Below are positions 728 through 33,628 of a stretch of 42,765 nt of DNA, piece after piece. The stretch covers positions 1-42,765 of the forward strand of contig JAHLWP010000035.1 in the NCBI GenBank assembly GCA_019057865.1, written 5' to 3'. A model generated the notes under the pieces. The model had not been told where the DNA came from, made no database searches, and saw only the letters and a program-made list of their open reading frames with translations. Each line of letters begins with the position of its first letter. Position 1 is the first letter of the stretch. A program made the position numbers and the translations under genes. Origin of the DNA: Promethearchaeota archaeon. Lineage in GTDB: Archaea > Asgardarchaeota > Lokiarchaeia > Sigyniarchaeales > SOKP01.

Positions 728-859
728 AGCGGGGTGGGCTAGCCTGGTTTATGCCGCAGGGCTCATATGTGGTAAATATTTACCATGGAGAGACCCTGAG
801 ATCGTTCGTTCAAAAGTAAGATGCTGATTTCCAGCAGATTGAAAATCGAACCCCCGCTA
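728..859 (+). tRNA. Initiator tRNA-Met(CAT) with two introns (37/38: 768-792; 59/60: 815-845)
   Basis: Acceptor stem AGCGGGG/CCCCGCT with A1-U72, G11-C24, three G-C pairs in the anticodon stem, CAT at 764-766. Removing both inserts restores the CTCATAA and TTCAAAT loops. Confidence 0.93.
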
Positions 860-1018
860 CTACTTTTTCTTATTTATTAACGAAATATATTAAGACACAC
901 AGTTTTTATTAAAGATTTGATAATAATAATTATTTGCAGCTTAACAATTATAGCTAAAATAAGTTGTTCATATAATAATATTTATTTAGAATTTATGAAT
1001 CATAAGAAATGGATTTGA

Positions 1019-1717
1019 ATGAGTTTTTATCAAAGTAAATTTCCAGCAATTAAGTGTATGATTAAGCATGTCTTAGAAGGTCAATTTTCTGAGGATGATG
1101 TCTTACTATACACTATTTTTGGGAAAATAAAGAATGTTCATATTATTGGAACTATTATTGAAAAGCGAGAGGAGGTTTATCAAAGAGAAGGTGAAGAAAG
1201 ACAAAGAATTATATTCGATTTAGATGATGGTACTGGATTGGTTCAGGCAGTTAAATGGGAGGCTAATTTTGAAAAATATGAAAACTTGAAGAAAGGAGAT
1301 GTCATTGATTTGGTTGGAAATTTCCCAAAAAAATGGAAACTGTATAACACGATCTCAATAAATTTTTTAACGAAAGTAGAAGATCCAAATCTAATTTTGT
1401 TGAGAAATGGGGAAGTAGTTAAAAAAATTAAATCAGGAGAAATCCAAGAGATACCAGATCTACTAGAAAATGTTAATGATGTTGATGAAATCTATGTGGA
1501 TGATTTATTTCACGAGGAACAAAACATTAAAAAAGAGGATATTAAAGAAAACATATATAAAGTAATTGAGGAACATTCTTCAAATGGATTTGGGATTAAT
1601 TTTGAAGAGCTAAACAAATTGATTCAAATTACTGAAAGTGTTTTGAAAAAATATATTAAAGATCTGGAGATGGAATCAAGAATTTATCAATCTGATAATT
1701 ATTATCAATCTTATTAA
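1019..1717 (+). CDS. Replication protein A 32 kDa-like subunit (OB fold plus C-terminal winged helix)
   Basis: OB motif LDDGTG, acidic linker, C-terminal wHTH (LKKYIKDLEMESRIYQ). Confidence 0.8.
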   Translation: MSFYQSKFPAIKCMIKHVLEGQFSEDDVLLYTIFGKIKNVHIIGTIIEKREEVYQREGEERQRIIFDLDDGTGLVQAVKWEANFEKYENLKKGDVIDLVGNFPKKWKLYNTISINFLTKVEDPNLILLRNGEVVKKIKSGEIQEIPDLLENVNDVDEIYVDDLFHEEQNIKKEDIKENIYKVIEEHSSNGFGINFEELNKLIQITESVLKKYIKDLEMESRIYQSDNYYQSY

Positions 1718-1815
1718 AAGTAAAGTTATAAAACAATATTTCAAAAAAGTAAAATATATTTTCTACGCAATTTTTTATATTTATAATTAAGTTTAATTCA
1801 AATTTGATAATAATC

Positions 1816-2229
1816 ATGGATTTATACGATTATAAGAAATTGCTAGATAAAGTATATGAAAAAATTCCAGAAAATGTAAAGCAGTCTGCTAGATTTGAGA
1901 TTCCCAAGGTAGAAATTCGTATAGAATCAAAAAATACTTTTATCACAAATCTTAATAAAATTCTTAACACTCTAAATAGAGATAAAAAGCATTTTATGGG
2001 AATTTTCCTTAAAAAAGCAGGGACAATGGGTGAGATTCGTGGGCAACAATTATTCTTGAAAGGTCAATATAAAGAACAAGTATTAAACCGGTTAATTGAA
2101 AATTATACAAAAACCTACGTATTATGTAGTATTTGTAATAAACCAGATACTCAAATTCAAAGAGAGGGTAAAAAATATTATCTTAAATGCACTGCCTGTG
2201 GAGCAAGACAAGAGATAAAAGAAAAATAA
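1816..2229 (+). CDS. eif2b: Translation initiation factor aIF-2 beta subunit
   Basis: Y..LLD..Y..IP, RFEIP, YVLCSICNKPDT...LKCTACGA zinc ribbon. ATG at 1816; alternative TTG at 1804. Confidence 0.95.
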   Translation: MDLYDYKKLLDKVYEKIPENVKQSARFEIPKVEIRIESKNTFITNLNKILNTLNRDKKHFMGIFLKKAGTMGEIRGQQLFLKGQYKEQVLNRLIENYTKTYVLCSICNKPDTQIQREGKKYYLKCTACGARQEIKEK

Positions 2230-2241
2230 ACTAGAAAGGAT

Positions 2242-2538
2242 ATGAAAGTATACCTGAAAATTCATCTTAAAGATGAAATTGAGACAATTGCTTGTTGCGA
2301 TGAAAAATTACTTAACCAAGTTTTTAAGGAAGGTAATTTGAGAATCGAGATTTCAAATCAATTTTTTGGAGGAAAATTATTTAATTTAGAGGATGCTATT
2401 GAAATTTTAAAAGAAGCATCTTACTTCAATATTGTAGGTGAAAATATAATTAGTAAAGCAATTGATTATAAAATTCTCCCTAAAGAGGGAATAAGATCTA
2501 TTAATGGAGTTCCAATGGCTTTAAAGATGATGTTTTAA
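2242..2538 (+). CDS. DUF424 family protein
   Basis: ACCD..LL, FFGG, NIVGE, GVP motifs; typical neighbour of aIF-2beta and NMD3. Confidence 0.85.
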   Translation: MKVYLKIHLKDEIETIACCDEKLLNQVFKEGNLRIEISNQFFGGKLFNLEDAIEILKEASYFNIVGENIISKAIDYKILPKEGIRSINGVPMALKMMF

Positions 2539-3452
2539 TGCCAAATCGATTTTGTGCTATATGTGGCAAAGTAGTTAGTGATGCTGATCCTCATTTTGGA
2601 ATGTGTTACGATTGTTATTTAAAGGAAAAACCTTTATTTGATTTACCTAAACGATTTTCATTGAATATTTGTATAGATTGTGGAAGTTATTCCAAAAAAG
2701 AAGTTTGGATTGAACCGAGAGATAACGAATTATTCCCTACAATCAATGAAGCTATCCATAGATTCTTATTAAAAAATTATTTGAAAAAGGGTAATATTGA
2801 GTTTTCTATCACTCTTGATGAGAAAAGTTATATATTTTCTTCAAAAGATTTATTAAAAAACCTCGATATCGTTGTTAATGGAAAAATGAAAGAAAACACT
2901 AATTTGAAGTATCAAGAAACAATTAATGTAAATTTAAATTATCTTCTGTGTAAAAACTGTTCAAATATAAGGGGAGGAACTTATTATATATCAATTATTC
3001 AATTACGAGTAAAAGATGAAACTCAATTTGATTTAATAGATAAAGCCCTAGATGAGATAAATAAGTATGCTGAAAAACTATTTGAAAAAGATCAAAAACA
3101 TTATATTTCAAAAATAGAGGATCAAAAATTTGGTGTAGACTTATATTTAAGTTCAAATGAATTAATGAATTATATCATAAAACTATTAAGAGTTAAGTAC
3201 TACTTTTTAATAAAAGGGACAAAGAAATTAATTGGCAGAGATATTCAAAAGGGTAAAAACCTATATAGATTAAAAACCTTAATAAAATTTTTACCAATAC
3301 AAAAAAATGATATTGTTATAATAGAAAATGAAGATTTTCTTGTTGAGAAGATTACTAAAAATAAAGTCTTCCTAAGAAACAAAAAGAATTCAAAATTGAT
3401 AAAAAATTATTCCTACTTTTTTAATGAGAAAATTCTTAAGAAAAAAATATAG
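2538..3452 (+). CDS. nmd3: NMD3 family ribosome biogenesis protein
   Basis: Four CxxC pairs (FCAICG, CYDCY, CIDCG, CKNC), IIQLR and GVDLYL motifs. Confidence 0.9.
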   Translation: MPNRFCAICGKVVSDADPHFGMCYDCYLKEKPLFDLPKRFSLNICIDCGSYSKKEVWIEPRDNELFPTINEAIHRFLLKNYLKKGNIEFSITLDEKSYIFSSKDLLKNLDIVVNGKMKENTNLKYQETINVNLNYLLCKNCSNIRGGTYYISIIQLRVKDETQFDLIDKALDEINKYAEKLFEKDQKHYISKIEDQKFGVDLYLSSNELMNYIIKLLRVKYYFLIKGTKKLIGRDIQKGKNLYRLKTLIKFLPIQKNDIVIIENEDFLVEKITKNKVFLRNKKNSKLIKNYSYFFNEKILKKKI

Positions 3453-3463
3453 AGGCAACTTTA

Positions 3464-4336
3464 TTGGAACAAGATAAAGATGAAATAGATGAGGAATTCG
3501 ATGAAATTTTAGATGAGGAATTCAATGAAATTTTAGATGAGGAATTCAACAATAAATTTGAGACTAATATTGATGAGTTGCAAAAAAGGAAAATAGATAA
3601 TAAAAGAATAAAAAAGATTGATCAATCAAAGAAAAGAGCAGTAATAGAATCTGTTTTTGATGAACGTACAATATTTCAATTAAATAGAATATTAACACAT
3701 GGACCACTTGAAAGAATTGAAGGGATAATCTCAGCCGGGAAAGAAGCAAATGTCTATCTAGCATATGATAGAAGTGGAGAAGAAGTTGCTGTAAAAATTT
3801 ATAAAATTGATAGTAATACTTCAAAATGGATGAGGAATTATATTATTGGAGATCCAAGATTTAAGAAAATTCCTAGTAATATTTCAAAAATTATTTTTTT
3901 ATGGGCAAGTAAAGAATTTAAAAACCTTAAAAGAGCATTTAAAGTAGGATTAAGTGTTCCAAAACCAATCTATATTAAGAATAACATATTATTAATGGAA
4001 TATATTGGTTTTGAATCCATTCCCGCCCCAATACTGAAGAATATTAAAAGCCCAAAGAATATAAATGATTTATTAGACGAATTATTAGATTTCATAAAGA
4101 TATTATTTCAAAAAGCTAAACTAGTTCATGGAGACCTTAGTGAATTTAACATCTTATATCATAATCAAAAACCGGTTGTAATTGATATTTCACAAGCAGT
4201 GTCAATTCAACATCCTAAAGCAGAAGTTTATCTAGTTAGAGATATTAAGAATATGTTGAATTATTTTAAAAAATTAGGGGTCAAAACACCAGATCCCGAA
4301 AAATTTTATTATGAAGTCATAAATTTAGACAATTAA
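3464..4336 (+). CDS. rio1: RIO1 serine/threonine kinase (TTG start)
   Basis: ISAGKEANVY, AVKIY, LVHGDLSEFNIL, IDISQAV. Confidence 0.95.
   Translation: MEQDKDEIDEEFDEILDEEFNEILDEEFNNKFETNIDELQKRKIDNKRIKKIDQSKKRAVIESVFDERTIFQLNRILTHGPLERIEGIISAGKEANVYLAYDRSGEEVAVKIYKIDSNTSKWMRNYIIGDPRFKKIPSNISKIIFLWASKEFKNLKRAFKVGLSVPKPIYIKNNILLMEYIGFESIPAPILKNIKSPKNINDLLDELLDFIKILFQKAKLVHGDLSEFNILYHNQKPVVIDISQAVSIQHPKAEVYLVRDIKNMLNYFKKLGVKTPDPEKFYYEVINLDN
3488..3549 (+). repeat. 24-bp tandem repeat (about 2.6 copies) encoding DEEF[D/N]EIL at the RIO1 N-terminus
   Basis: GATGAGGAATTC(G/A)ATGAAATTTTA units start at 3488 and 3512, with a partial unit at 3536. Confidence 0.9.
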
Positions 4337-4379
4337 ATAAATAAAGTAAAATGATTTAATCAAAATTTTTTATATAAAA

Positions 4380-4937
4380 ATGAAAATTGGTAAAAATCGT
4401 ATAGCAGTCTTAATCGGGAAGGATGGAGAAACAAAAAAAGAGATTGAAAAAGCATTAGCAGTAAAAATTAATTTAGATAGTAAAACCGGTGAATGTGAGA
4501 TTTTACCATTAATTAACGTTCTAAATTACAATCCAATTAATGTTTACACAGCAGAAAAAATTGTTAACGCGATTAATAGAGGGTTTAATCCTGTTAAAGC
4601 AATGAAATTATTGGATGAAACTTATGAACTGGAAATTTTTAATCTTTTTTTACTTTTAGGTAAATCAGATAAGAGGATTAAACGAATTAAAGGACGTATT
4701 ATTGGAAGAAATGGAGAAATGCGTAAGGCAATTGAAAGATTTGCTGAAAGTTACATTTCAGTATACGGAAAAACTGTATCCATCATAGCAGATTATGAAA
4801 ATTTACAGATTGCAAGAAAGGCAGTAAGTATGTTGATAAATGGAATGCCTCATCATGTTGCTTTAAGGTTTTTAGAAAATAAATATAATGAAAAAAAGAA
4901 AGAGCAATTTAGACAGATGTATAAACCTGAATTTTAA
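4380..4937 (+). CDS. KH-domain rRNA processing protein Pno1/Dim2
   Basis: RIAVLIGKDG, RGF.P..A, RIKGRIIGRNG, G..H motifs; follows rio1. Confidence 0.92.
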   Translation: MKIGKNRIAVLIGKDGETKKEIEKALAVKINLDSKTGECEILPLINVLNYNPINVYTAEKIVNAINRGFNPVKAMKLLDETYELEIFNLFLLLGKSDKRIKRIKGRIIGRNGEMRKAIERFAESYISVYGKTVSIIADYENLQIARKAVSMLINGMPHHVALRFLENKYNEKKKEQFRQMYKPEF

Positions 4938-4941
4938 TAAT

Positions 4942-5310
4942 CTATTTTAAAAACTTGTTTTTATAGATTTTAGAGGCATTATTTAAAATATCTTTTCCAT
5001 ATATAATTTCTTTTAATTCTTTGAGTAAAAGGCTTTGATTTCTAATGTTTTCTACTGAAAAAATTTCATTAAACTCTTCCTTTTTAGAATAATTAAGGTG
5101 AACTTCAAAGCTTTTAATAGAATATGAATTCGTAGTGTAAGATTTGAAAATAACTATACTCCGTGGATAAAGACTTTTTTCTTTTAAGAAAATACCCCAA
5201 CCATCGAAATAAAAATCAAAATTAATAGAAAAGAATTCATTCCAAAAACTTATTTCTTTAAGAATCCCATCTATTTCATTTTTTATTTTTGGAGAAAACT
5301 TGTATTCCAT
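4942..5310 (-). CDS. Hypothetical protein
   Basis: 122-aa ORF filling the gap downstream of ftsZ; no recognised motif. Confidence 0.65.
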   Translation of the reverse strand: MEYKFSPKIKNEIDGILKEISFWNEFFSINFDFYFDGWGIFLKEKSLYPRSIVIFKSYTTNSYSIKSFEVHLNYSKKEEFNEIFSVENIRNQSLLLKELKEIIYGKDILNNASKIYKNKFLK

Positions 5311-5356
5311 ATAATTTAGTATAATTAGGAATATTTAAAGAAATATTAAAAAAAAA

Positions 5357-6463
5357 TTAATCAAAAGCAATTTCACCAATGTTAAATATATCATTGGATA
5401 AACCTAATTTTGATTTTTTAAATTTAGGTTTATAGGATGGTTGATTCATTGAAAAACAATTACCAAAAATTTGAGGAGATTTAATACCTGTAATAAGAAG
5501 CATGACTCTTAAAAATCCATCAAATTCATCCGAAACACGTGCACCCCAAATAACCATAGAGTCATTTACATCCATTTTTTCTGATATTTTTTTAGCGACT
5601 GAGTTAGCTTCTGCTAAAGTCATGTCATTTCCTCCACAAATATGAATTAAAGCACCTTTTGCTCCTTCTATACTCACATCTAATAATGGAGTATTAAGTG
5701 CGTCATTAATAGCGTCATCAACACGATTCTCATTTCCATTTGATTCACCAACCCCTACAATTGCAACACCACCAGTACTCAATATTGTTCTAACATCTGC
5801 GAAATCCAAATTAATCAAGGATGGTAATGATATTGTTTCAGTAATACCTTTTACCATTGTTGCTAATACTTCATCAGCAACACTGAAAGCTTCTATGATT
5901 GGTAAGTTAGGGGCAATTTCTAATAATCGATTATTATCTATTACGACCAATGTATCAACATATCTTTTTAAAAGATTTAAACCAATTTTTGCTTTATCCA
6001 TCCGTCCAATTTCCGTTTCAAATGGTAGAGTCACTACTCCTACTACAATAGCACCTTCCAGTTTCGCAATTTCAGCTATAATGGGAGCACTACCTGTCCC
6101 AGTTCCCCCTCCTTCTCCACATGTTATAAATACTAAATTTGAATCTCTTAAAACTCTTGTTAAAGCTTCTCGAGATTCTTCCGCAGCTGCTTTACCAATC
6201 TCAGGATTACCACCCGCACCAAGTCCCCTTGTTAAATTTTTTCCAATTAAAATTTTTATTTGAGACTCCACAGCATCTAAATGTTGGCAATCGGTATTTA
6301 TAGCAATACACTGAGCCCCTCTTATTCCTATTTTCATTAATCTATTAATTGTATTATTTCCTGCACCACCACATCCAAGGATCTTAATATTGGCATAGCC
6401 CAAATTTTCAATTTGGGGATTATTTATTTCTCTCTTACGTGCATTTTTGATAAATGATTCCAT
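5357..6463 (-). CDS. ftsZ: Cell division protein FtsZ (FtsZ2-like)
   Basis: GCGGAGNN, GLGAGGNP, GGGTGTG tubulin signature. IDNNRLL and PSLINLDFAD resemble the archaeal FtsZ2 clade. Confidence 0.95.
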   Translation of the reverse strand: MESFIKNARKREINNPQIENLGYANIKILGCGGAGNNTINRLMKIGIRGAQCIAINTDCQHLDAVESQIKILIGKNLTRGLGAGGNPEIGKAAAEESREALTRVLRDSNLVFITCGEGGGTGTGSAPIIAEIAKLEGAIVVGVVTLPFETEIGRMDKAKIGLNLLKRYVDTLVVIDNNRLLEIAPNLPIIEAFSVADEVLATMVKGITETISLPSLINLDFADVRTILSTGGVAIVGVGESNGNENRVDDAINDALNTPLLDVSIEGAKGALIHICGGNDMTLAEANSVAKKISEKMDVNDSMVIWGARVSDEFDGFLRVMLLITGIKSPQIFGNCFSMNQPSYKPKFKKSKLGLSNDIFNIGEIAFD

Positions 6464-6564
6464 TCAAAATCAATTATTGAATTTAATTAATTCTTTAAAA
6501 AAAAAATAAAATTGGAAAATTATAATTGATGTGATATCTAAATATTATATATCTTATATAAAAT

Positions 6565-7785
6565 TCAATGTAATGAAAAATCCTTTTCGATATCAGGATC
6601 AAAGATTTGCTTTAATTGATTATCTTTAATGAGGAAAATCTTTGGTAAAGGATATGGAAAGCGATTTGAAAAAGTTAAACAGTACGCACCTGTATTGGTG
6701 ACTAAAACTTTATCCCCTTCTTTTATATACTCACTAAAAAAGTAATCTTTTGCTAATACATCTTGATCAGTTGGAACTATTCCTAAGAATGTTGTTGGTT
6801 CATTATGCGAAAGATGGATTTTAGAGGCATTATAAAACCTTAGAGAACATCTAGCGAATTTCGGACATATGTGATTTCCTATATTTAAGAAAACATTTCG
6901 ATCATTAGATACTTTTAGAATTTTAGCTATAAATAAACCAGCATCACCAACAAAGTACCTACCAGGTTCAAAATAAATTTTCTCATAATTAATACTAAAA
7001 TCCTCAAAGATGGTTCTTATATTTTTAACAATTTTTCTTAATTGGTTTTGAGGCATTATAGTAGCTTCTGGAAAACCCCCTCCAATATTTATATTTTTAA
7101 CATTAATCCCAATTCGCGAAAAATTCTTTAAAGCCTCTATAATAGTTGTAATATTTTTTTTAAATTGCTCAAAATTATTCATTTGAGTACTATAATGAGA
7201 TAGTATTGTTGTTATTTTGATATTTTTACAACTTGTAATTAGCCTTTCTAAAAATATTAAGTTTTTTTTATCAAAATTAATACCTAATTTACTATTATAT
7301 TTCTGAGAATTAACTCTGATACAAATATTTTGGTTAGTATTAAATTTCTGAGCAACTAAATTAATTTTTTTTATGTCATTTAAATTATATACTATTAATT
7401 CCTTGATTTGGTTTTTTATACTAAGTCTTATCATTTCTTTTGGTAAATAGGGCCCTCCAGCTAATATTTTATTAGGGGGAAATCCGATTTTTAATGCTAA
7501 TCTAAGTTCAGGTAACCCGACAACATTTGCACCAATTCTTTCTGAACATATAATATTACAAATATCGGGAAGAAAATTAGCTTTAAATGAATAATAGCAT
7601 TCAAAATCATTAAATTCAGAACTAACAACATCTATAAATGATTTGACATTATCTCTTATTCTGTTTTCCAAAAAAATTAATAATGGAGTTTTAAATTTAT
7701 TTAGAATATCTTCAAGATATATCAAATCAATTAAAATTTTGCCTCCCTCTTTCTTTAAGAAAGGATTTCCAGAGATTTTTTTCAT
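6565..7785 (-). CDS. Fold-type III PLP enzyme, diaminopimelate/ornithine decarboxylase family (atypical)
   Basis: YSFKAN (PLP lysine), NIGGGF, FEPGRY, NTGAY; the catalytic CESGD motif is replaced by PTDQD. Confidence 0.8.
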   Translation of the reverse strand: MKKISGNPFLKKEGGKILIDLIYLEDILNKFKTPLLIFLENRIRDNVKSFIDVVSSEFNDFECYYSFKANFLPDICNIICSERIGANVVGLPELRLALKIGFPPNKILAGGPYLPKEMIRLSIKNQIKELIVYNLNDIKKINLVAQKFNTNQNICIRVNSQKYNSKLGINFDKKNLIFLERLITSCKNIKITTILSHYSTQMNNFEQFKKNITTIIEALKNFSRIGINVKNINIGGGFPEATIMPQNQLRKIVKNIRTIFEDFSINYEKIYFEPGRYFVGDAGLFIAKILKVSNDRNVFLNIGNHICPKFARCSLRFYNASKIHLSHNEPTTFLGIVPTDQDVLAKDYFFSEYIKEGDKVLVTNTGAYCLTFSNRFPYPLPKIFLIKDNQLKQIFDPDIEKDFSLH

Positions 7786-7795
7786 ATTATTATCA

Positions 7796-9094: not shown

Positions 9095-9144
9095 AATATA
9101 TTGATCCTTTTTACTTATTAATTATATTTATAAATAAGATACAA

Positions 9145-15813: not shown

Positions 15814-15944
15814 TGCAGGGAGTGGGATTTGAACCCACGTACTCCTGTGAGACCGGATTTCTCATCAGAAATTGCATTAATCAACGGAATTGTATTTAAC
15901 AGATCTTGAGTCCGGCACCGTTGACCAGGCTTGGTTATCCCTGC
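15814..15944 (-). tRNA. tRNA-Leu(CAA) with a canonical 37/38 intron (15859-15904, 46 nt)
   Basis: GCAGGGA/TCCCTGC acceptor, CCGGA-CTCAAG[intron]A-TCCGG, long variable arm, BHB central helix CTCA/TGAG. Confidence 0.95.
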
Positions 15945-18743: not shown

Positions 18744-18753
18744 TGTTAAGGAA

Positions 18754-24390: not shown

Positions 24391-24471
24391 AGAAATTAGG
24401 TAAAGATTTATTTTTTTAATTATATAACTTTTTATATCTAGATTTCTGAAAGAGATGTTAATTATTATTAT

Positions 24472-25082: not shown

Positions 25083-25616
25083 ATGCAAAGTTCATGGATA
25101 TTTAAAGTAATTGTGGCAGGGGCTGGTGGAGTTGGAAAAACTGCTATGATAACTCGTTATTGTACAGGGAGATTCGAAGAAGGGTATAAAATGACTATAG
25201 GTGCAGGTTTTTATACAAAATCTGAAATTCTTGATACAGGAGAAGCTGTTAAAATGCAACTCTGGGATTTTGCAGGAGAAAAACGTTTTCGCGAACTTCT
25301 ACCCGACTATTGTAAAGGGGCTAGTGGAGCATTCATATGTTTTGATATAAGCGATTATGATACATTTAGAGAAATACCTGAATGGCTTAAGATCATCCGC
25401 CAAAAAGCTGGATTTATACCAATAATTCTTATGGGTATGAAATGGGATCTACCCAACCATGAAGTTGTTTACGAAATTGCAAATGATTATGCTGAAAAAG
25501 CTAAATGTAATCAGTGCGTATTTTGTTCTTCGAAAGGAAATATCAATGTAACAGATTCTTTTCAGGCCATGGCAAAATGGTTAATCTATTATGCCACTCA
25601 AACAAATATGATATAA
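25083..25616 (+). CDS. Rab-like small GTPase
   Basis: FKVIVAGAGGVGKT, YKMTIG, LWDFAGEKRF, MKWD, CSSK; no C-terminal prenylation motif. Confidence 0.9.
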   Translation: MQSSWIFKVIVAGAGGVGKTAMITRYCTGRFEEGYKMTIGAGFYTKSEILDTGEAVKMQLWDFAGEKRFRELLPDYCKGASGAFICFDISDYDTFREIPEWLKIIRQKAGFIPIILMGMKWDLPNHEVVYEIANDYAEKAKCNQCVFCSSKGNINVTDSFQAMAKWLIYYATQTNMI

Positions 25617-25707
25617 TATTAAAATTCTGATTTTAATCTGGTTTTATTAAACAGTAAAAGCTAAATATAATATTTAATAAAATTATTATAAAATAATCAT
25701 AAAAAGC

Positions 25708-25902
25708 GCCTCTGTAGCTCAGTTAGGTAGAGCACCGCCTAAATTATGTGCGCCTAAAGCACCCGGCTAAGTAAGCTTGATTTCACAGCTTCTCCGGAAG
25801 TTAACCGGGCGGTCGCATGTTCGATATTCTGTCTGATGATATCCAGACAGAACGGGTTCCATACAATGTTCGAGCTCCAAGCAGTGGGAAAAGCCAGGGG
25901 CG
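25708..25902 (+). tRNA. tRNA-Asn(GTT) with four introns (22/23, 33/34, 59/60, 63/64)
   Basis: Exons 25708-25730, 25758-25768, 25800-25825, 25859-25862 and 25893-25902 join into a 74-nt cloverleaf: GCCTCTG TA GCTC AGTTAGGTA GAGC A CCCGG CTGTTAA CCGGG CGGTC GCATG TTCGATC CATGC CAGGGGC G. G73 fits Asn. Confidence 0.88.
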
Positions 25903-25973
25903 CTTTACTTCTCTTTTAAAATAATAATAAAAAAGAGTGTGAAATTTTATATTTATTATTTAATCAATTATAA

Positions 25974-26114
25974 TGCTCCCGCCGGGATTCGAACCCGGGT
26001 CGCAGGGGTTTTCCCTATAGACGAAGGAAATAGGTCTATATGAAGGCCCCGTATGCCACGCCCTTTCCTTCTCAATATTGAAGGGATTGATTGGCCAGAC
26101 TACACTACGGGAGC
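25974..26114 (-). tRNA. tRNA-Glu(TTC) with two introns (D-arm ~24/25: ~26054-26087; anticodon loop ~36/37-37/38: ~26009-26040)
   Basis: GCTCCCG/CGGGAGC acceptor, GTGT D-stem, CGGGG/CCCTG anticodon stem, CGAC variable loop, CCGGG-TTCGAAT-CCCGG T-arm, TTC at 26044-26042. Exact junctions are ambiguous by a few nt. Confidence 0.8.
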
Positions 26115-26358
26115 AAATTTTTATCTAATTAATTTTTTTTATCCTTATGATAGAGTAATCAAATAATATTATTCAAAGAATTTGATAAATCACGACTTAT
26201 GTATAATTTTGTAATTATTTTTTAATTTTAAATTTTTTCATAATCTATTTTGGAAAATTAGACTTAGTAATTAATTAACTCTTAAAATAAGTATCTTTTG
26301 TACAAATTCATTGAAATTTCTAAATTTGATATTTTAATTTATGTGGTATTGAATCTAA

Positions 26359-26443
26359 TGCGGGAAGGGAGATTTGAACTCCCGAACTCCTACGAGAATG
26401 GATTCTAAGTCCACCACCTTTGACCAGACTTGGCGATTCCCGC
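26359..26443 (-). tRNA. tRNA-Leu(TAG), intronless
   Basis: GCGGGAA/TTCCCGC, GTGGA-CTTAGAA-TCCAT, long variable arm, GGGAG-TTCAAAT-CTCCC. Confidence 0.96.
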
Positions 26444-26613
26444 TTTTTGAGATTAAATTGTAGATTTATTATTTAATTAAAATGGTTAGAAATAAATAAA
26501 TTTTATATTTGTGAACTTAGTTCTAAATACGATTGAATTAAAAGAAAAAAATTTATTATTATATATAATATAAAAATTTTATATTAATAATAAAAAAAAA
26601 GCCTGAGTTTTTT

Positions 26614-27612
26614 ATGAGTGTAAGGGAATCTTTAATTAAACATTTAACGTCTATTTTACGGGCATCTGAAGGAACAATCTTAGTAGTTCTATGTGATCAA
26701 AATGGTCTATCTATAGCTAAAATTGGCAGGAAAAGTGATATAGATTTAAATCCAAATCAAATAACAAGTTTAGCATCAGCAGCGTTTTCTGCTAGTCAAG
26801 AAAATTGGGAAGATTTGAACATTAAAGATCAAGTTATTTCATTTTCATATTTTGATAAGATTTGTTTGATAACAATAAGAATTAATGAAACTCTTCTTAC
26901 AATAGTTCATGATTATCATAAAGAATGGCCATTAGATGCTGATAATCTAGCTAGTTCTATGTATTATTTAAAACAAAAGTTAGGTGATTTTTTTGGGGGT
27001 GGCAGAGAATCTGAAAAAGAAATTGAAGAGTTTTGCGATAAAGTTCGAAGTGCTACGTATCTTTTCGGGATGGGATCAGAAGTTCCTTTTACATCATACC
27101 TCCCTGAAAAAATTGATAAATCAGATATCTTAAATTCTATAAGCACTGTTTTGGATTCTGTTCAAAATCCTATATTTATCAGGTATAGTTTAGTTAGCCC
27201 TTCTGGTTTGACTTTAGATGCTCGAGAAGTTAGTGGGAAAGATTTACCTGTTTCCGTTGAAGCATTTTCTGCAAATGCTAACGTAGCATTTCAAAAAATG
27301 AAAGAAGAATCAGAAGGAAGCTCAATTGGTGATCTCTTAAGTTATATAGCAATCGCAGGTCAAGATACTGAAAATTTTTATGGTCTTCTCGCAAGTCCTT
27401 CAGGAAAAATAAATTTTTCAAAAATGGAAGATACTTCAAATGTTCAGGAAATATCTTTTATTGGATTGTTTACATTAACATATGGAGGTATTCCCGTTAT
27501 TAGTGAAGCCAGAAATATTATTTTTTCAATATTAGAAATTCTTGGGAGTGAAAAAACGACACAGAACTTCATTGAGTCTATAAATGTTCTTACTAGTTAT
27601 AAATATGATTAA
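26614..27612 (+). CDS. Tandem roadblock/LC7 (MglB-like) domain protein
   Basis: Two repeats of the roadblock pattern: VVLCDQNGLSIA...ITSLASAAF and SLVSPSGLTL...FSANANVAF. Confidence 0.8.
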   Translation: MSVRESLIKHLTSILRASEGTILVVLCDQNGLSIAKIGRKSDIDLNPNQITSLASAAFSASQENWEDLNIKDQVISFSYFDKICLITIRINETLLTIVHDYHKEWPLDADNLASSMYYLKQKLGDFFGGGRESEKEIEEFCDKVRSATYLFGMGSEVPFTSYLPEKIDKSDILNSISTVLDSVQNPIFIRYSLVSPSGLTLDAREVSGKDLPVSVEAFSANANVAFQKMKEESEGSSIGDLLSYIAIAGQDTENFYGLLASPSGKINFSKMEDTSNVQEISFIGLFTLTYGGIPVISEARNIIFSILEILGSEKTTQNFIESINVLTSYKYD

Positions 27613-27693
27613 GGATAAGAAAACTCATGATTTATGAGAATATATATTCCTACTATTAGATAATAATGTAATAGTTGACTTAAAGGTTGAGTT

Positions 27694-28155
27694 ATGAAGG
27701 ATGATAACTCTATAGTATACATGCCAAAGATTTATTGTCTTCATTATAGAGAGTGTGATCCAAAAAAATGCACAGCCTTAAAACTAAAGAAATTTAACTT
27801 ATTAAAAATAATAAAAAAAATCAAGGGTGTATTGAATAATTCAATTGTTCTAAATCCTTTCGCTCGAACAGAACTAACCATTGATGATAGGGAAATTATC
27901 ATTAGATATGGTCTTACTGTAATTGATTGTTCTTGGAATAAGCTTTTGGATTTAAATAAATTTAATTTAGGAGTATCGCGTAGATTACCTCCTTTATTGG
28001 CAGCAAATCCAACAAATTATGGAAAATGGGAAAAGTTGAGTTCTGTAGAAGCAATAGCAGCTACTTTTTTTATTACTGGTTTTTATAATTATGCAGAATT
28101 ATTGCTTTCTAAATTTCATTGGGGGAGCCAATTTAAGAATTTAAATAAATTTTAA
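27694..28155 (+). CDS. tsr3: SSU rRNA aminocarboxypropyltransferase Tsr3
   Basis: ECDPKKCTALKL, VIDCSW, RRLPPLLAANPTNYG...LSSVEA, F.WG..F..LN. Likely start is the ATG at 27721. Confidence 0.95.
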   Translation: MKDDNSIVYMPKIYCLHYRECDPKKCTALKLKKFNLLKIIKKIKGVLNNSIVLNPFARTELTIDDREIIIRYGLTVIDCSWNKLLDLNKFNLGVSRRLPPLLAANPTNYGKWEKLSSVEAIAATFFITGFYNYAELLLSKFHWGSQFKNLNKF

Positions 28156-28182
28156 AAAAATAAGTAAGATTAAAATAAAGTT

Positions 28183-29787
28183 CTATTCTCCACTACTCTT
28201 TGAGAGTCCTGAAGCGGCAATTACATCGTCAATCTTTAATATCATCGAGGAGACTTCTGTTGCTGATTGTATTGCTTGGGTTAAAATGGACAATGGTTCA
28301 AGAACACCTAATTGTACCATGTTATCTGGTTTTCCAGTATCAATATTTACTCCATTGGCCTTACCGTCATCATTTTCATGTTTAGATCTTAGTTCAACAA
28401 TTAAATCAACTGGATTATAACCCGCATTTTCTACTAATGTTTTTGGTATAATCTCCAAAGCATTAGCATAAATTTCTATTGCTAATTGTTCTCTACCCCC
28501 AATTGATCTTGCATATGCCCTTAGTCGCTTTGCTAATTCTATTTCGGAAGCACCTCCACCAGGTAAAATATAAGGTAATTCTATTGCTGCTTTTACTACT
28601 GATAATGCATCATGTAACATTCTTTCTGCTTCATCGACCACATGTTCGATTCCTGCTCTAATTAATATACTAACAGCCTTAGGATCAGTACATTCTGAAA
28701 CAAAAATCATATTATCATCTCCGATTTTCTTTTCTTCTACTTTTCCAGAATTTCCTAAATCTTGTGGGGTAATTTCAAAAATATTGTTAATAATTCTCGC
28801 ATTAGTAGCTCTTGCTAGTTTCTCCATATCAGATCTTTTAACTCTCCTAATACAAATGATATTCTCCTTAGCAAGGAAGTTCTGAGCTTTATCATCAACT
28901 CCTTTCTGGCAAAATACAACGTTAGCACCTACTTCTTTTAATTTTGCAACACGATTTTTTAACATATTTGCTTCTTCTTCAAGAAATTTATTTATTTGAT
29001 CCGGGGTCTGAATTCTTATTTCAGCATCAAACTCTGTTTTCTCAACTTCTAAAGAAGAGTTTATTAAGGCAATTTTTGCATTTTTAAGAGATTTTGGCAT
29101 CATTGGATGAACTATTTCTTTATCAACGATAATTCCATCAATAATATTAGTGTCTAAAAGGCTTTTTCCTTCTTTTTTGATTATCTGGATTTGATCCAAA
29201 TCAATTATAACATTATCACCACGTTGTTCTTTAATTTGACTAACTGCTTTTACAGCGATGCTAGCAAAATGACTTTTTACACCCGTTATTAATTTACTAT
29301 TCATTGATGTTTCTGCAACTTTAGTTAATATGTTATTGTCATTGATATCTATTTTGATTGCAAGATCCAGTAAAATTTCTTTACTTTTTAAAAGGGCCTT
29401 TCTATACCCTCTAAAAATTATTGTGGGATGTACTGATTGTTCCATTAATTCTTCTGCAAGATTTAATAGTTCTCCAGATATAATTACGCTAGTCGTTGTA
29501 CCATCTCCAACTTTTTCATCTTGAGTTTTTGCTACTCCAACTATCATTTTAGCTGCTGGGTGTTCAACATCAATAGTATCTAAGATGGTTGCTCCATCAT
29601 TTGTTATTGTAACATCTCCTAATGAGTCAACTAGCATTTTATCCATGCCTTTTGGTCCTAATGTAGTTCTTACTGCTTCTGCTACTGCTTTTGCGGCGGC
29701 TATATTATTTTTTTGGGCATCTTTTCCACGTTTTCTTTCGGTCCCTTCTTTTAAAATGAGGATAGGGACACCTGATAATTGTGCCAT
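28183..29787 (-). CDS. Thermosome (group II chaperonin) subunit
   Basis: [38 protein letters not shown]. Confidence 0.97.
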
Positions 29788-29899
29788 TTAATTTTCACTT
29801 TCAAAATTTTAATTTTAATAATTTTCTTTATATAGATCTCTAAGTCATAAAATTAAAAAAGTTTACGAAAATTAACTAGTATTAAGTTGTTTAAAGGAT

Positions 29900-29919
29900 A
29901 TATTCAAAATTTTGAATAT
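29900..29919. promoter_or_regulatory. Perfect 20-bp palindrome upstream of the thermosome gene (candidate operator)
   Basis: ATATTCAAAATTTTGAATAT in the divergent thermosome/ATPase intergenic region. Confidence 0.35.
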
Positions 29920-30160
29920 CTTATCTCTTTCTTTAAATAAAAAGAATAAGATTAATAACAAACTTAATGTTATTATTTAGAAATTTAAAGATTTAATGAA
30001 TAAGACCTTTTTGTTCTTTTATTGTAATAATAAAAATATAAACTAATTTTTACCAAAATTATGTTTATATTAATTTTTTGTGGAATTTGATTCTCTTCCT
30101 CTAAATTTTAGTGTTGTTTTTAATCTCAAAGAATTATTTATTGATAAATGAGATGTAATT

Positions 30161-31942
30161 TTGATATCTTTTTTAATTTTTTTGATTATAAGTCTATTTT
30201 GTTTATTAACAAATATTATTTTCTACATATATAGGAAAAGAAAATATTTTTTATATAGGATTAAAATTTTACTTTTCATATTTTTTGCATTTTCAGCAAT
30301 CCTAGTTATAGTGAATATCCCTTTTTTTATTTTCAATCATTCAAAATATTTCATAGATAATGATTATGAATTTACTATTCCTATGATAATCTTTAATTTA
30401 TCAAATTTTATGTTAGGCATATCGATTATTCTTTTTCTTTTAACCTTTTTTCATTTTGATAAGACCATAATAGATCTTGATATACCCTCACGATTAGAAT
30501 CTAAAAAGGGTAATATTCTTATAGGGAGAATTCTAAGGGGGAAAATTAAAAAACAGAGATTTATTTTATCTATTAAGGACCTTGAGAAACATATGTTTAT
30601 TTGTGGAGCAACAGGTACAGGTAAAAGCAATTTTCTTCAAAATTTATTAATAAATTTTACAAAAGTTCAAAACATCCCCTTTTTCTTAGTCGAATTTAAA
30701 GGAGAATACCATTTTTTACAAAAAAAAATTAATAATGTACTCATTCTTTGGCCTGGAGAAAACTTTTCAATAAATATCTTTAATCCTGAAAGTTCAAATC
30801 CAATCATTCATGCTGAAAGAATATTTGATATTTTGAAAAGTGGACAGTTTCTAGATGATAGTTCGGAATATTCTCCTCAAATGGAGAAAGTTCTAGTTGA
30901 AATATTGACAAAGGTTTGCCAAAGTAAAAATCTTCAAAATTGGAAAGGTTTTGAAGACTTTTGTGGAGAATATCTTAAAGAAAATAAGGGGAATATTCCG
31001 ATGTTAAACCAAACTCTTATTAGTATTAAAAATCGAATAAGAAGATTTTCGACTGGACCATTGAATTCAATATTTGAAGAAGAAAATGAAATTAATATAA
31101 ACAAATTATTTAAAAGAAATATAATTTTAGATTTAAGCTCAATCATTCGCTTAGGTGGTGAAAAAGAAGATGCACTCTTTTTCTTAAATATGATATTGAA
31201 ATATTTATGGGATAAGAATTTATCTAAAGGAGCTTATAATTTCAAAGGTATTAAACACATTACAATAATTGAAGACGCTCAATACTTTGCTCCAAGAGAT
31301 TTAAGGAGAAAAAATAAATTAACTACTTATTTAGAAGATATTGCTTTATTACAGAGAGGGACAGGGGAATGTTTAATTACTTTAGCTTCACGCCCCGATA
31401 TCAGTAGAGACATTCTCGCTAATAATGGAATCGTTTTAACTTTCAAAAATCATATAGAAAAAGATATTATGTGTGAGTTGTTAAACCTTGATATAGAAAA
31501 AAAACATTACTTATCAATTTTAGAGGAGGGGCAGTGTATCATAAGGATAAATTCAATCAAAGAACCCTTTTTATTAAAGATTCCACTTATTAAAGATGAA
31601 TCTCTATCCATTTCAGAGATATCTAAAACTAATAGTCTTATTATGGAATCAATTAAAAGTAATATCAATACAATACCAAAAATTCAAAAGAAAAAATTGT
31701 TAATTTATCTGAGAAAAATTTTTAGTTTTTTTATCAGAAAAAGTAAAAAGTTTTCTTCGATTTTTAAAAAGAAAAACAAGAAAATAATAGAAAATCAAAA
31801 CTTACCTTTTAAGAATAACCCTGTTTCGAATCAGTTGAATTTTGAAGAGAAACTTTTAAATAAAAATTTACAGGAACATTCTTTTAAAAATTTACAATCT
31901 TATATAAATAATTTATATAATCAGCAAATCAAAGAGGAATAA
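30161..31942 (+). CDS. Membrane-anchored HerA/FtsK/VirB4-family ATPase (DUF87-like)
   Basis: About three N-terminal transmembrane segments, KHMFICGATGTGKS Walker A, EFKGEY, IIEDAQ variant Walker B. Confidence 0.8.
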   Translation: MISFLIFLIISLFCLLTNIIFYIYRKRKYFLYRIKILLFIFFAFSAILVIVNIPFFIFNHSKYFIDNDYEFTIPMIIFNLSNFMLGISIILFLLTFFHFDKTIIDLDIPSRLESKKGNILIGRILRGKIKKQRFILSIKDLEKHMFICGATGTGKSNFLQNLLINFTKVQNIPFFLVEFKGEYHFLQKKINNVLILWPGENFSINIFNPESSNPIIHAERIFDILKSGQFLDDSSEYSPQMEKVLVEILTKVCQSKNLQNWKGFEDFCGEYLKENKGNIPMLNQTLISIKNRIRRFSTGPLNSIFEEENEININKLFKRNIILDLSSIIRLGGEKEDALFFLNMILKYLWDKNLSKGAYNFKGIKHITIIEDAQYFAPRDLRRKNKLTTYLEDIALLQRGTGECLITLASRPDISRDILANNGIVLTFKNHIEKDIMCELLNLDIEKKHYLSILEEGQCIIRINSIKEPFLLKIPLIKDESLSISEISKTNSLIMESIKSNINTIPKIQKKKLLIYLRKIFSFFIRKSKKFSSIFKKKNKKIIENQNLPFKNNPVSNQLNFEEKLLNKNLQEHSFKNLQSYINNLYNQQIKEE

Positions 31943-31976
31943 ACTTTAAGATATTAAGATTCTATAAATTATATAT

Positions 31977-33188
31977 ATGACATTAACAGTAGGTATCGTA
32001 GGAAAGCCTAGCAGTGGAAAAACTACTTTTTTAAATGCTGCTTGTTTAACCAATGCTAAAGTTAGCGAAATTCCTTTCACTACAATAGAGCCTAATAAGG
32101 GTGTTACTTACATAAAAACGGATTGTGTGTGTAAAGAATTAAATGTTAGTGATAATGCAAAAAATTCTTTTTGTATTGATGGTTTTCGCTTTATACCTAT
32201 AAATTTATTAGATGTAGCTGGGCTAGTCCCAGATGCCCATAAAGGAAAGGGATTAGGTAACAAGTTCCTCAATGATTTAATTATTGCAGATGCACTTTTG
32301 CATATTGTAGATATCACAGGAGCTCTTGATAAATCTGGTAAAATGGTTTCAATAGGGGAAAATGATCCATATGAGGATATTTTATTTTTGGAGAATGAAA
32401 TAGATTTATGGTTTAAAGAGATTATTGAAAGAGAAGATTGGAAAAGATTCACGAAAGGAATTTTATCAGAAAAGAAAATGATTGTTGATGCATTACATGA
32501 GAGACTTTCAGGTATCAAAATAAATAAAAAGGAAATTATTTTAGCTTTAAAAAATTCTAAATTAGAAACAAAAAATCCATTAGCATGGACAGCTCAAGAT
32601 ATTTTGATGTTTTCAAAGAAATTAAGAAAAATTTCTAAACCAATCATAATTATTGCAAATAAAATTGATAAAGAAATTAGTGAAAAAAATTTAAATGAAC
32701 TAAAAAGTAAATATAGTGGTCCAATTTTTCCGTGTAGTGCTTTAGCAGAACAGGTTTTAAGAAAATATCATGAAGATAAGGTCATTGAATATCTCCCTGG
32801 ATCAACAGATTTCAAAATTTTAAATCAACAAAAATTGAGCTCTAAAGAATTTGAAACATTAAAGAAGATAAAGGATAAAATATTAAGACCTTATCAAGGG
32901 ACAGGGATTCAAAAAGTTTTAAACTTCGCTACATTTAATGTGTCAAATCAGATTTGTGTTTATCCTGTATCTGATATTAATACCTATTCAGATAATAAAA
33001 ATAATGTTCTACCTGATGCTTTTCTAGTTGAAAAGGGAACTCTATTAAGAGACTTTGTCAGGGATAAAATTCATAGCGATTTAGCTAAGAATTTTATATT
33101 TGGTATTGATGCAAGAACAAAAAAACGGCTTGGAGAAAATTATGAACTAAAACACAATGATATTATCAAAATTGTGACTAACAAATAG
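31977..33188 (+). CDS. ychF: YchF/Ola1 family translation-associated NTPase (archaeal type)
   Basis: GIVGKPSSGKTT, PFTTIEPN, DVAGLVPDAH.GKGLGNKFL, NKID, C-terminal TGS domain. Confidence 0.93.
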   Translation: MTLTVGIVGKPSSGKTTFLNAACLTNAKVSEIPFTTIEPNKGVTYIKTDCVCKELNVSDNAKNSFCIDGFRFIPINLLDVAGLVPDAHKGKGLGNKFLNDLIIADALLHIVDITGALDKSGKMVSIGENDPYEDILFLENEIDLWFKEIIEREDWKRFTKGILSEKKMIVDALHERLSGIKINKKEIILALKNSKLETKNPLAWTAQDILMFSKKLRKISKPIIIIANKIDKEISEKNLNELKSKYSGPIFPCSALAEQVLRKYHEDKVIEYLPGSTDFKILNQQKLSSKEFETLKKIKDKILRPYQGTGIQKVLNFATFNVSNQICVYPVSDINTYSDNKNNVLPDAFLVEKGTLLRDFVRDKIHSDLAKNFIFGIDARTKKRLGENYELKHNDIIKIVTNK

Positions 33189-33202
33189 AGTTGAATGAAA
33201 AA

Positions 33203-33358
33203 TTACTCTTCTTTTGAAGTTAATAGTATATATACAAGTATAATAATTAACAAAATAAGTCCAAATAATACTAATACAAAATTAAATAGTTCTACTTCAT
33301 CATCTGAAGCTTGATACAAAAAAAGAAGTGTTATTGTTAGAAAGTAATAAATTTTCAT
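33203..33358 (-). CDS. Putative small membrane protein (51 aa)
   Basis: Not in the ORF track: MKIYYFLTITLLFLYQASDDEVELFNFVLVLFGLILLIIILVYILLTSKEE; fills the gap convergent with ychF. Confidence 0.45.
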   Translation of the reverse strand: MKIYYFLTITLLFLYQASDDEVELFNFVLVLFGLILLIIILVYILLTSKEE

Positions 33359-33525
33359 ATTATTAATGAATATTTAAAGAAAAATTTAAAAATTTCCTAT
33401 TTTTAATAATGAATATTTTGGGATTAATCCAATTTAAATAAAATCAGCAAATATTCTATTATTAATTTTGATTGAATTATAGTAATACTTTTACAGTCGT
33501 TTAATAGTAAATTTTTAAAAATAAA

Positions 33526-33628
33526 TGGACCTGACGGGAATTGAACCCGTGACCTCTTGAATGCAAGTCTTGTAAATCAAGCAAAATGCTTGTTTTTGTC
33601 AAGCGATCTTCCACTGATCTACAGGCCC
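33526..33628 (-). tRNA. tRNA-Ala(TGC) with a non-canonical 32/33 intron (33567-33597, 31 nt)
   Basis: GGGCCTG/CAGGTCC acceptor with G3-U70, CTTGA-C[intron]TTGCAT-TCAAG, BHB central helix CTTG/CAAG. Confidence 0.93.

Follow-up and report, generated by a model that had tools for sequence, protein, structure and literature searches.

tRNA genes of the window and their intervening sequences

The window, by which we mean the whole 42,765-nt stretch of Promethearchaeota archaeon DNA analyzed here (contig JAHLWP010000035.1), contains six tRNA genes when both strands are searched, and five of these six genes are interrupted by a total of ten inserts of 25-46 nt (Table 1). Removal of the inserts leaves near-perfect cloverleaves in all ten cases, with cloverleaf scores of 32-33 out of 33. 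The genes were located with an intron-aware solver that couples a T-arm-anchored cloverleaf search to a bulge-helix-bulge (BHB) search and that was run blind on both strands of the whole window. It returned initiator Met (iMet), Leu-CAA, Asn, Leu-TAG and Ala with scores of 32-33, the best remaining locus in the window reaching 23.7, and resolving tRNA-Glu took looser BHB thresholds together with comparative data. In the same window ARAGORN with introns disabled detects Leu-TAG only, the Rfam tRNA model identifies Ala, Leu-TAG and Leu-CAA at the gathering score and Glu with just E=2e-4, and neither of them finds iMet or Asn. The tRNA-Ala (TGC) gene lies directly downstream of a 16S rRNA gene and has the G3:U70 pair. 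The anticodon loop of tRNA-Glu reads CCTTCAC, with a C at position 33.

Table 1. tRNA genes of the window and the introns that interrupt them. Intron sites are given in tRNA numbering.
Feature	Position	Strand	Support
tRNA-iMet (CAT), 76 nt mature, two introns	728..859	+	blind solver 32/33
iMet intron 1, 25 nt, 37/38 (canonical)	768..792	+	central helix 3/4, outer 5 bp, inner 7 bp
iMet intron 2, 31 nt, T-loop 59/60	815..845	+	central helix 4/4, outer 5 bp, inner 2 bp
tRNA-Leu (CAA), 85 nt mature, one intron	15814..15944	-	Rfam 42.4 bits; solver 32
Leu-CAA intron, 46 nt, 37/38 (canonical)	15859..15904	-	central helix 4/4, outer 6 bp, inner 2 bp
tRNA-Asn (GTT), 74 nt mature, five exons, four introns	25708..25902	+	solver 33/33, zero stem mismatches
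Asn intron 1, 27 nt, D-stem 22/23	25731..25757	+	central helix 4/4 in 1 of 7 equivalent registers
Asn intron 2, 31 nt, anticodon loop 33/34	25769..25799	+	central helix 4/4 (CCGG/CCGG), weak flanks
Asn intron 3, 33 nt, T-loop 59/60	25826..25858	+	central helix 4/4, outer 3 bp, inner 9 bp
Asn intron 4, 30 nt, T-stem 63/64	25863..25892	+	central helix 4/4 (TTCC/GGAA)
tRNA-Glu (TTC), 75 nt mature, two introns	25974..26114	-	Rfam 37.2 bits (E=2e-4); relaxed solver; eleven same-genus orthologues
Glu intron 1, 34 nt, D-loop/D-stem 21/22	26057..26090	-	central helix 3/4 here, weak flanks (relaxed solver)
Glu intron 2, 32 nt, 36/37 or 37/38 (one A ambiguous)	26010..26041	-	central helix 3/4, inner 7 bp
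tRNA-Leu (TAG), intact	26359..26443	-	ARAGORN; Rfam 55.1 bits
tRNA-Ala (TGC), 72 nt mature, one intron	33526..33628	-	Rfam 56 bits; solver 33/33
Ala intron, 31 nt, anticodon loop 32/33	33567..33597	-	central helix 4/4 (CTTG/CAAG), outer 2 bp

The boundaries of the inserts carry BHB motifs. In the exact splice register, the BHB central helix has all four pairs in seven of the ten window introns and three of four in the remaining three, the chance of four central pairs being 2.7% (P=0.027) for a random pair. For tRNA-Asn the candidate boundaries were listed using nothing but the mature sequence, independently of the BHB motif, and among the 11 sequence-equivalent registers a single one provides four central pairs for each intron. 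The helix of the fourth Asn intron makes use of the last two bases of the third, which means that the motif takes shape in the precursor before splicing. The flanking helices (h and h') are strong in iMet intron 1, the Leu-CAA intron and Asn intron 3. They are weak or one-sided in Asn intron 2, where the outer helix is absent, in the Ala intron, where the inner helix begins past one mismatch, and in Glu intron 1, which has a near-absent flanking helix, and these three are hence regarded as relaxed BHB forms. The central helix of Glu intron 1 (GGCC with GG(C/T)T) was read by hand in its orthologues, and it has four pairs in most of those examined. Judged from sequence, the window inserts are thus predicted BHB introns in ordinary archaeal tRNA genes, occupying the canonical and, more often, non-canonical positions. 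The earlier note had listed ten introns in five of the six window genes, with Leu-TAG intact, and all of them are present in the sequence; the lengths it gave (seven of 30-34 nt, plus 25, 27 and 46 nt) agree exactly. Its intron positions hold as well, save for Glu intron 1, where both the BHB register and a set of eleven orthologues from the same genus indicate 21/22 and not ~24/25.

Intron load across the genome and the genus

The genome is an 87-contig metagenome bin with an estimated contamination of 5%, and its nearest named relatives, Promethearchaeia MAGs, place it in the Loki-type class of the Asgard archaea. Applied to the whole of it, the solver resolved 43 tRNA genes. Of these, 10 are intact, 21 have a single intron and 11 a pair, tRNA-Asn has four, and the 47 introns in all have a median length of 30 nt. 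Three more interrupted loci were read by hand, bringing the total to about 36 interrupted loci out of 46 (~78%). The genome mean lies at ~1.1 introns per tRNA gene and the window is denser, with 1.7 per gene. There are 34 loci in the genome with a solver score of at least 31, and the maximum attained in a reversed-genome decoy is 27.1. Twenty of the 47 introns are located in the anticodon arm, 14 in the D-arm and ten in the T-arm (nine of these at 58/59-59/60), and position 37/38 is the site of only about a quarter. The central helix has four pairs in 33 solved introns and three in 14, counts that are partly circular, since the solver picks introns by their BHB. The load is therefore genome-wide and mostly non-canonical, as had been surmised for the lineage from the window, and the question raised at the time of whether tRNA genes elsewhere would be mostly intact is answered by 10 intact against about 36 interrupted loci.

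Each anticodon is represented once, except for CAT, which is found twice (initiator and elongator Met), and Cys-GCA, also found twice. The genome census did not find Arg-CCG or Pro-CGG, and tRNA-Sec was partly parsed in it. The 5' part of an Ala-GGC gene lies on contig C55, truncated-looking, ~400 nt from the contig end and abutting a short alpha/beta-hydrolase-like frame; a search of the genome gave no match for its 3' part. Several candidates were discarded. A class-consistency filter removed class II artefacts, in which part of an intron is kept as a long variable arm in a tRNA other than Leu or Ser. ARAGORN wrongly calls two genes intact: its Arg-TCT on C80 is an interrupted Arg-TCT, its Leu-CAG on C60 an interrupted Arg-TCG, and in both a perfect acceptor stem lies further upstream. 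When allowed introns (ARAGORN -i), the same program assigns wrong anticodons to interrupted genes, reading for instance Glu as Arg, and without introns it recovers 10 true genes in the genome; 16 of the 46 tRNA loci fall below the Rfam gathering score. In such genomes, many tRNA genes hence escape standard tRNA finders.

Comparison with relatives reveals that a heavy intron load is common to the genus. The split genes recur in many independent same-genus assemblies, with conserved exons and diverged introns, and a survey of 40 relatives with the Rfam tRNA model lends indirect support, most near-complete genomes presenting 13-36 hits among the matches listed, for ~45 needed. Individual introns come and go. 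The tRNA-Asn orthologue in the same-genus genome G012 is 98-99% identical. Asn intron 1 is present in G012, G014 and G016 and absent from G020, G001, G008, G006, G009, G017, G015, G011, G007 and G013, and Asn intron 2 is absent from most same-genus orthologues. At the junction of Glu intron 2, query bases 75-105 are missing in G015, G016 and G020, and also in the G017 orthologue. In these three cases (Glu intron 2, Asn introns 1 and 2) the insert is precisely absent from same-genus orthologues. Conversely, about twelve same-genus orthologues of Leu-TAG, intact in the window, carry a 33-nt intron at 21/22, and Glu has an extra intron at the junction of variable loop and T-stem in other same-genus genomes. 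That genomes of the same genus lack some of these introns and possess others points to recent turnover.

Splicing enzymes and the persistence of introns

Two EndA paralogues are encoded in the genome, as judged by PF01974 matches on contigs C71 (104.6 bits, in a frame of 200 aa) and C69 (70.5 bits, 207 aa). For the C71 protein the nearest match is an A. pernix endonuclease chain, 3P1Z_B (E=3e-35, 172 residues aligned), and the protein keeps the Tyr, His and Lys in this alignment. Its stretch GSPLGINKPRLEYFSKP aligns without gaps to GQPLDVEKPRGADFEGP of A. pernix, which we take to be the Crenarchaea-specific (L1) specificity loop, and the stretch includes the conserved Lys. The residues of the catalytic triad are assigned after M. 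jannaschii EndA, and in an alignment to 1A79 the C69 protein has a Ser at the position of the catalytic His of that enzyme. The two genes are thus predicted to encode a two-subunit EndA, with the C71 protein as the catalytic alpha subunit and the C69 protein as a beta subunit without the catalytic His. The genome also encodes an RtcB ligase (561 bits).

With gene anatomy, BHB registers, presence and absence in relatives and enzyme genes established, we consider it very probable (about 0.88) that the inserts are BHB introns of ordinary tRNA genes, spliced by EndA and RtcB, and that they form part of a genome-wide, genus-shared and already published Asgard phenomenon. We infer that the precursors are spliced as follows. 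In the folded precursor, pairing would occur between two four-base stretches, one in the exon and stopping 2 nt short of the 5' splice site, the other in the intron and stopping 2 nt short of the 3' splice site; the two-subunit endonuclease would cleave in the flanking bulges, and RtcB would then ligate the exons. An endonuclease of broad specificity would make introns nearly neutral at any site that allows a BHB, and this is the most likely reason for their persistence and accumulation. The assembled contigs of four RNA-labelled runs, which cover small parts of positions 25600-26500 and in which absence of splicing cannot be demonstrated, gave no spliced joint; one metatranscriptome contig covers tRNA-Glu unspliced.

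An adaptive alternative, raised in the earlier note, is that introns, especially those in the T-arm and 3' half, persist by destroying the att sites of integrating elements. The ten T-arm introns, with their concentration at 58/59-59/60, agree with this idea, and the genome contains five PF00589 matches, of which just one, a tyrosine integrase ~1 kb downstream of the intact tRNA-Gly (TCC) and at a contig end, has a tRNA gene within 5 kb. Nonetheless, this amounts to an integrase within 5 kb at one of 10 intact and none of 36 interrupted loci, a difference that is not significant in so small a sample, and a search of the window returned no integrase. The D-arm and the anticodon arm, which host 14 and 20 introns, are moreover not singled out by the idea, and evidence of mobile elements has been reported to be rare near any Asgard tRNA gene and unlinked to intron gains (10.64898/2026.10.13.758758), an observation that tests arrival and not protection. 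We deem att-site masking unlikely. Copying of inserts between tRNA genes, that is, intron transposition as proposed for the Thermoproteales, would make the window the product of a burst of one mobile family. The uniformity of intron lengths (seven of ten in the window at 30-34 nt, a median of 30 nt in the genome) and the use of one T-loop insertion site nine times are what such a process might leave behind. An all-against-all local alignment of the 47 introns, however, has a best score of 12, against 11-13 in five shuffles, and shared intron families comprise 1.5% of intervening sequences across 12 focal lineages of Asgard archaea (focal denoting the three most intron-rich Asgard families), versus 28% in the Thermoproteales (10.64898/2026.10.13.758758). 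Transposition is accordingly an unlikely source of these introns.

A further reading, in which the interrupted loci would be pseudogenes in decay or artefacts of bin assembly, with working tRNAs elsewhere or unassembled, draws on the fragmentation and estimated contamination of the bin and on the truncated-looking Ala-GGC part on C55. It is highly improbable in view of exons whose cloverleaves are perfect or nearly so and keep every invariant base, of anticodons present in one copy apart from the CAT pair and the second Cys-GCA, of the same split genes in many independent assemblies of the genus, and of the occurrence of the sequence in DNA runs from 14 studies.

Beyond splicing by EndA and RtcB, we can only tentatively, and with some doubt, entertain the possibility that the ~30-nt tRNA introns of the genus come from a single, actively renewed pool of BHB micro-introns whose targets also include protein-coding genes of this genome. 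Their median length of 30 nt and their gain and loss within the genus are consistent with such a population, and the absence of shared sequence among tRNA introns runs counter to it. A search of the window for BHB inserts that, once excised, would join open frames gave no convincing intron in a protein gene. If the idea were true, tRNA genes would be the most visible targets of a general and active insertion process in Loki-type Asgard archaea. Two kinds of candidate were rejected: eight putative mRNA introns of 20-55 nt, all at boundaries of neighbouring genes, were judged to be due to chance, and a T-arm-like 14-mer at C79:32113, considered as an att copy, is unlike one and sits in coding-like sequence.

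Relation to published systems

The locus offers a clean and fully dissected example of tRNA gene disruption, including a five-exon tRNA-Asn, in which intron gain and loss are visible between species of one genus. It opens no new question, as the heavy Asgard tRNA intron load, its BHB context and the endonuclease have already been published. A heavy and mostly non-canonical load has been described in PMC5829648 (2018), PMC11291895 (2024) and the bioRxiv preprint 10.64898/2026.10.13.758758 (2026). The earlier note had named prior documentation of such a density for the group as grounds for refutation, and these three works supply it for Asgard archaea. Interruptions affect 92-95% of the tRNA genes of Atabeyarchaeia and Freyarchaeia (PMC11291895), and in a study of 90 Asgard genomes the non-focal families average 0.91 intervening sequences per gene, with a maximum of 1.65, gains being repeated and mostly terminal and insertion sites BHB-enriched (10.64898/2026.10.13.758758). 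The introns analyzed here belong to the same phylum and resemble the published ones in their mostly non-canonical sites, in the presence of several per gene, in D-arm and T-arm hot spots, in the many genes missed by standard annotators, in the BHB motifs at their boundaries, in the two-subunit EndA, in gains on terminal branches and in the lack of intron families. The load of this genome (~1.1 per gene, ~78% interrupted) is lower than that of the focal families (2.2 per gene, 97% interrupted) and close to that of the other Asgard families.

The predicted endonuclease likewise has a counterpart in A. pernix, whose (alpha-beta)2 enzyme (3P1Z / 3AJV) it resembles in the aligned loop region of the C71 protein, in the Tyr-His-Lys set and in having a second paralogue devoid of the His. 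The sequence of the C69 protein, on the other hand, has more in common with M. jannaschii EndA (1A79) than with the beta subunits of Crenarchaea. Across Asgard genomes, an (alpha-beta)2 EndA with the L1 insert has been reported throughout (PMC5829648).

The Thermoproteales, to which the earlier note had likened this lineage, provide the other obvious term of comparison. According to a figure quoted in PMC11291895, 70% of their tRNAs are interrupted, and, by the original accounts as these are cited in later papers (Sugahara 2008; Fujishima 2010), they share with the present genome the interruption of most tRNA genes, non-canonical sites, genes with several introns each, BHB motifs of relaxed form and an (alpha-beta)2 endonuclease. 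The likeness is thus upheld for density, but not for the mode of spread. The introns of the Thermoproteales fall into sequence families that extend across tRNA types, which is the evidence for transposition, whereas the 47 introns analyzed here show none, and the resemblance hence stops at density.

Interrupted tRNA genes in the window

Cuts in the archaeal bulge-helix-bulge (BHB) motif fall at set positions within its bulges. Descriptions of the motif are given in the literature consulted for archaeal tRNA introns, and introns were tested on its central helix of four base pairs, whose exon strand stops 2 nt short of the 5' splice site and whose intron strand stops 2 nt short of the 3' splice site; all four central pairs are expected by chance for a random pair in the window contig with P=0.027. 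For tRNA-Asn, all routes to the expected mature sequence were enumerated with the motif unused; this gave 11 sequence-equivalent registers, and for each intron a single one of them reaches 4/4 central pairs. The intron lengths (25, 31, 46, 27, 31, 33, 30, 34, 32 and 31 nt) agree exactly with the earlier note, and its positions also stand, except for the first intron of tRNA-Glu, which it had placed at about 24/25 and which lies at 21/22. In this register G22 comes from the 3' exon, and a 4-bp central helix followed by an inner helix is obtained in most same-genus orthologues. Canonical 37/38 introns account for two or three of the ten.

The six tRNA genes named in that note can all be seen on visual reading of the G+C-rich islands. 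ARAGORN reports a single tRNA in the window, Leu-TAG, and the Rfam tRNA model reaches its gathering score there for Ala, Leu-TAG and Leu-CAA, finds Glu only at E=2e-4 and leaves iMet and Asn undetected, with large unaligned inserts in each match. A cloverleaf search anchored on the T-arm and acceptor stem and allowed to skip BHB candidates (the solver), run blind on both window strands, recovered iMet, Leu-CAA, Asn, Leu-TAG and Ala at scores of 32-33, the next-best locus scoring 23.7; Glu was solved with relaxed thresholds and comparative data. No convincing BHB inserts were found inside protein-coding genes of the window.

The window is one entire contig (C77) of an archaeal genome of 4.26 Mb, 29% G+C and 87 contigs. 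The closest named relatives by thermosome (85-91% identity) are Promethearchaeia and Promethearchaeota MAGs; the genome is accordingly assigned to the Asgard archaea and, within them, to the class holding Promethearchaeales and Helarchaeales. Besides RPA-like proteins, the window encodes a Ras-family GTPase and Roadblock-type proteins, the latter two being part of the typical Asgard set of eukaryote-like proteins. Its 16S rRNA gene is complete and uninterrupted (Rfam search), and the rRNA genes appear to be unlinked, since Rfam gave no match to 23S or 5S anywhere in the window, the 33.5 kb downstream of 16S-tRNA-Ala included. The snoR127 match reaches 30.7 bits (E=0.05), below the gathering score of 37.

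Features of the window and of other contigs (C handles) of its genome, G000
Feature	Location	Strand	Remark
Box C/D snoRNA family snoR127	window 2522-2646	+	sub-threshold; at open frame's start
Ras-family small GTPase gene	window 25083-25616	+	immediately upstream of tRNA-Asn
tRNA-Glu(TTC)	window 25974-26114	-	anticodon loop CCTTCAC
tRNA-Leu(TAG)	window 26359-26443	-	intact
MAPKK1_Int/Roadblock-like protein	window 26614-27612	+	weak
16S rRNA gene, then tRNA-Ala(TGC)	window 33526-35420	-	
Roadblock/LC7 protein	window 35686-36771	+	
tRNA-Sec, probable	C41:~175100-175345	-	parsed without D-arm
tRNA-Gln(TTG)	C41:227226-227330	-	anticodon loop CCTTGAA
tRNA-Ala(GGC), 5' part	C55:~400-660	-	intact as far as T-loop, breaks off there
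tRNA-Gly(TCC)	C79:40453-40524	+	intact
Tyrosine integrase gene	C79:41549-42001	+	~1 kb downstream of tRNA-Gly(TCC), ~300 nt from contig end
tRNA-Arg(TCT)	C80:4395-4499	-	30-nt D-loop intron
tRNA-Gln(CTG)	C87:26290-26391	+	anticodon loop CCCTGAA

Intron load across the genome and the genus

A strict whole-genome solver run gave 34 loci scoring at least 31, followed by a gap, the reversed-genome decoy peaking at 27.1. Further genes came from relaxed runs and manual parsing: Trp, Val-CAC, Tyr, Glu-TTC, Ser-CGA, Ser-GGA, Ile-TAT, Lys-CTT, Thr-TGT and Met; by none of these means were Arg-CCG and Pro-CGG found in the genome. The 43 fully solved genes hold 47 introns: ten genes have none, 21 have one, 11 have two and one (Asn) has four. 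These introns have a median length of 30 nt (range 18-50) and lie in the anticodon arm (20/47, 11 of them at 37/38), the D-arm (14), the T-arm (10, nine at 58/59-59/60) and the variable region (3). Three more interrupted loci were parsed by hand: a second Cys-GCA copy with one intron, tRNA-Sec and the 5' part of Ala-GGC. The interrupted loci thus number about 36 of 46 (78%), and introns average some 1.1 per gene; at 1.7, the window is dense, yet no outlier in kind. The remainder of the genome is not mostly intact, and hence the load noted in the window holds genome-wide.

Several genes have peculiarities of their own. Position 33 is U in nearly all tRNAs; it is C in tRNA-Glu(TTC), tRNA-Gln(TTG) and tRNA-Gln(CTG), and Glu orthologues in the genus are divided between CCTTCAC and CTTTCAC loops. 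The probable tRNA-Sec has a CTTCAAA anticodon loop, a 9-bp acceptor stem, a long variable arm, an intron of ~29 nt in the T-loop and an apparently encoded 3' CCA. In tRNA-Ala(GGC), the break lies ~400 nt from the end of the contig and borders on a short, convergent alpha/beta-hydrolase-like frame, and the assembly yielded no 3' exon. Candidate explanations for this break are a long intron, a split gene and a scar left by rearrangement. The tRNA-Arg(TCT) intron is composed of D-arm-like repeats (GCCTAGCCAGCC / AGCTAGCCAGCC / TAGCTTGCCTAG); the supposedly intact gene that ARAGORN and Rfam call there, its acceptor stem poor, is a misreading of the downstream part of this interrupted gene.

Comparison with same-genus genomes (G handles) shows intron gain or loss between species of one genus. 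In G015, G016, G017 and G020, tRNA-Glu has the D-loop intron and lacks the anticodon-loop intron, and other congeners carry an extra intron where the variable loop meets the T-stem. The 5' 59 positions of tRNA-Asn are uninterrupted in about ten genomes, its introns 1 and 2 being common to G012, G014 and G016. Finally, tRNA-Leu(TAG), uninterrupted in this genome as well as in G012, G019 and G022, is split at 21/22 by a 33-nt intron in some twelve congeners (loci L003-L006, L030, L115-L116, L119-L127).

Splicing machinery, RNA and integrases

The genome encodes an RtcB ligase and two PF01974 endonuclease paralogues. One (contig C71) has chain 3P1Z_B of the Aeropyrum pernix endonuclease as its best match, retains Tyr, His and Lys, and aligns without gaps over a stretch that we take to be the Crenarchaea-specific loop; the other (C69) has Ser in place of the catalytic His. 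Asgard archaea have been assigned an (alpha-beta)2 endonuclease with an L1 insert (PMC5829648), a type able to cut relaxed motifs, and this gene set fits that assignment. We infer that the window tRNA introns are spliced; assembled contigs from four RNA-labelled runs contain zero spliced junctions and are uninformative on this point. A 233-nt cold-seep metatranscriptome contig (run X19, 10 differences) spans tRNA-Glu at window positions 25943-26173 with both introns retained, and could represent precursor RNA from a close relative or carried-over DNA.

There is no integrase in the window, and the five tyrosine-recombinase matches genome-wide are all more than 5 kb away from any interrupted tRNA locus. 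The integrase beside the intact tRNA-Gly(TCC) may belong to an integrated element at which the assembly broke; its contig yielded no att repeat. Introns might mask tRNA attachment sites from integrating elements, an adaptive role put forward in the earlier note; this single tRNA-linked integrase carries no weight for or against it.

Relation to other Asgard tRNA introns

Disrupted tRNA genes were mapped in four Asgard genomes in 2018, when incomplete tRNA sets were taken as a sign of hidden disrupted genes (PMC5829648). In Atabeyarchaeia and Freyarchaeia, interruptions affect 92-95% of tRNA genes; non-canonical positions are frequent, as are genes with several interruptions (PMC11291895, 2024). 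A 2026 preprint covering 90 Asgard genomes reports, for the three families richest in introns (the "focal" ones), 2.2 intervening sequences per gene, against an average of 0.91 elsewhere, together with BHB enrichment, D-arm introns overlooked by annotators, and repeated, mostly terminal gains for which no general arrival route was found (10.64898/2026.10.13.758758). Our test of the genome's tRNA introns revealed no sequence families, and this absence and the census figures agree with that preprint. The earlier observation of the intron load was correct and careful, and such density is already documented for the group by these three studies: the load is a real genome-wide feature, and a further member of a published Asgard phenomenon.
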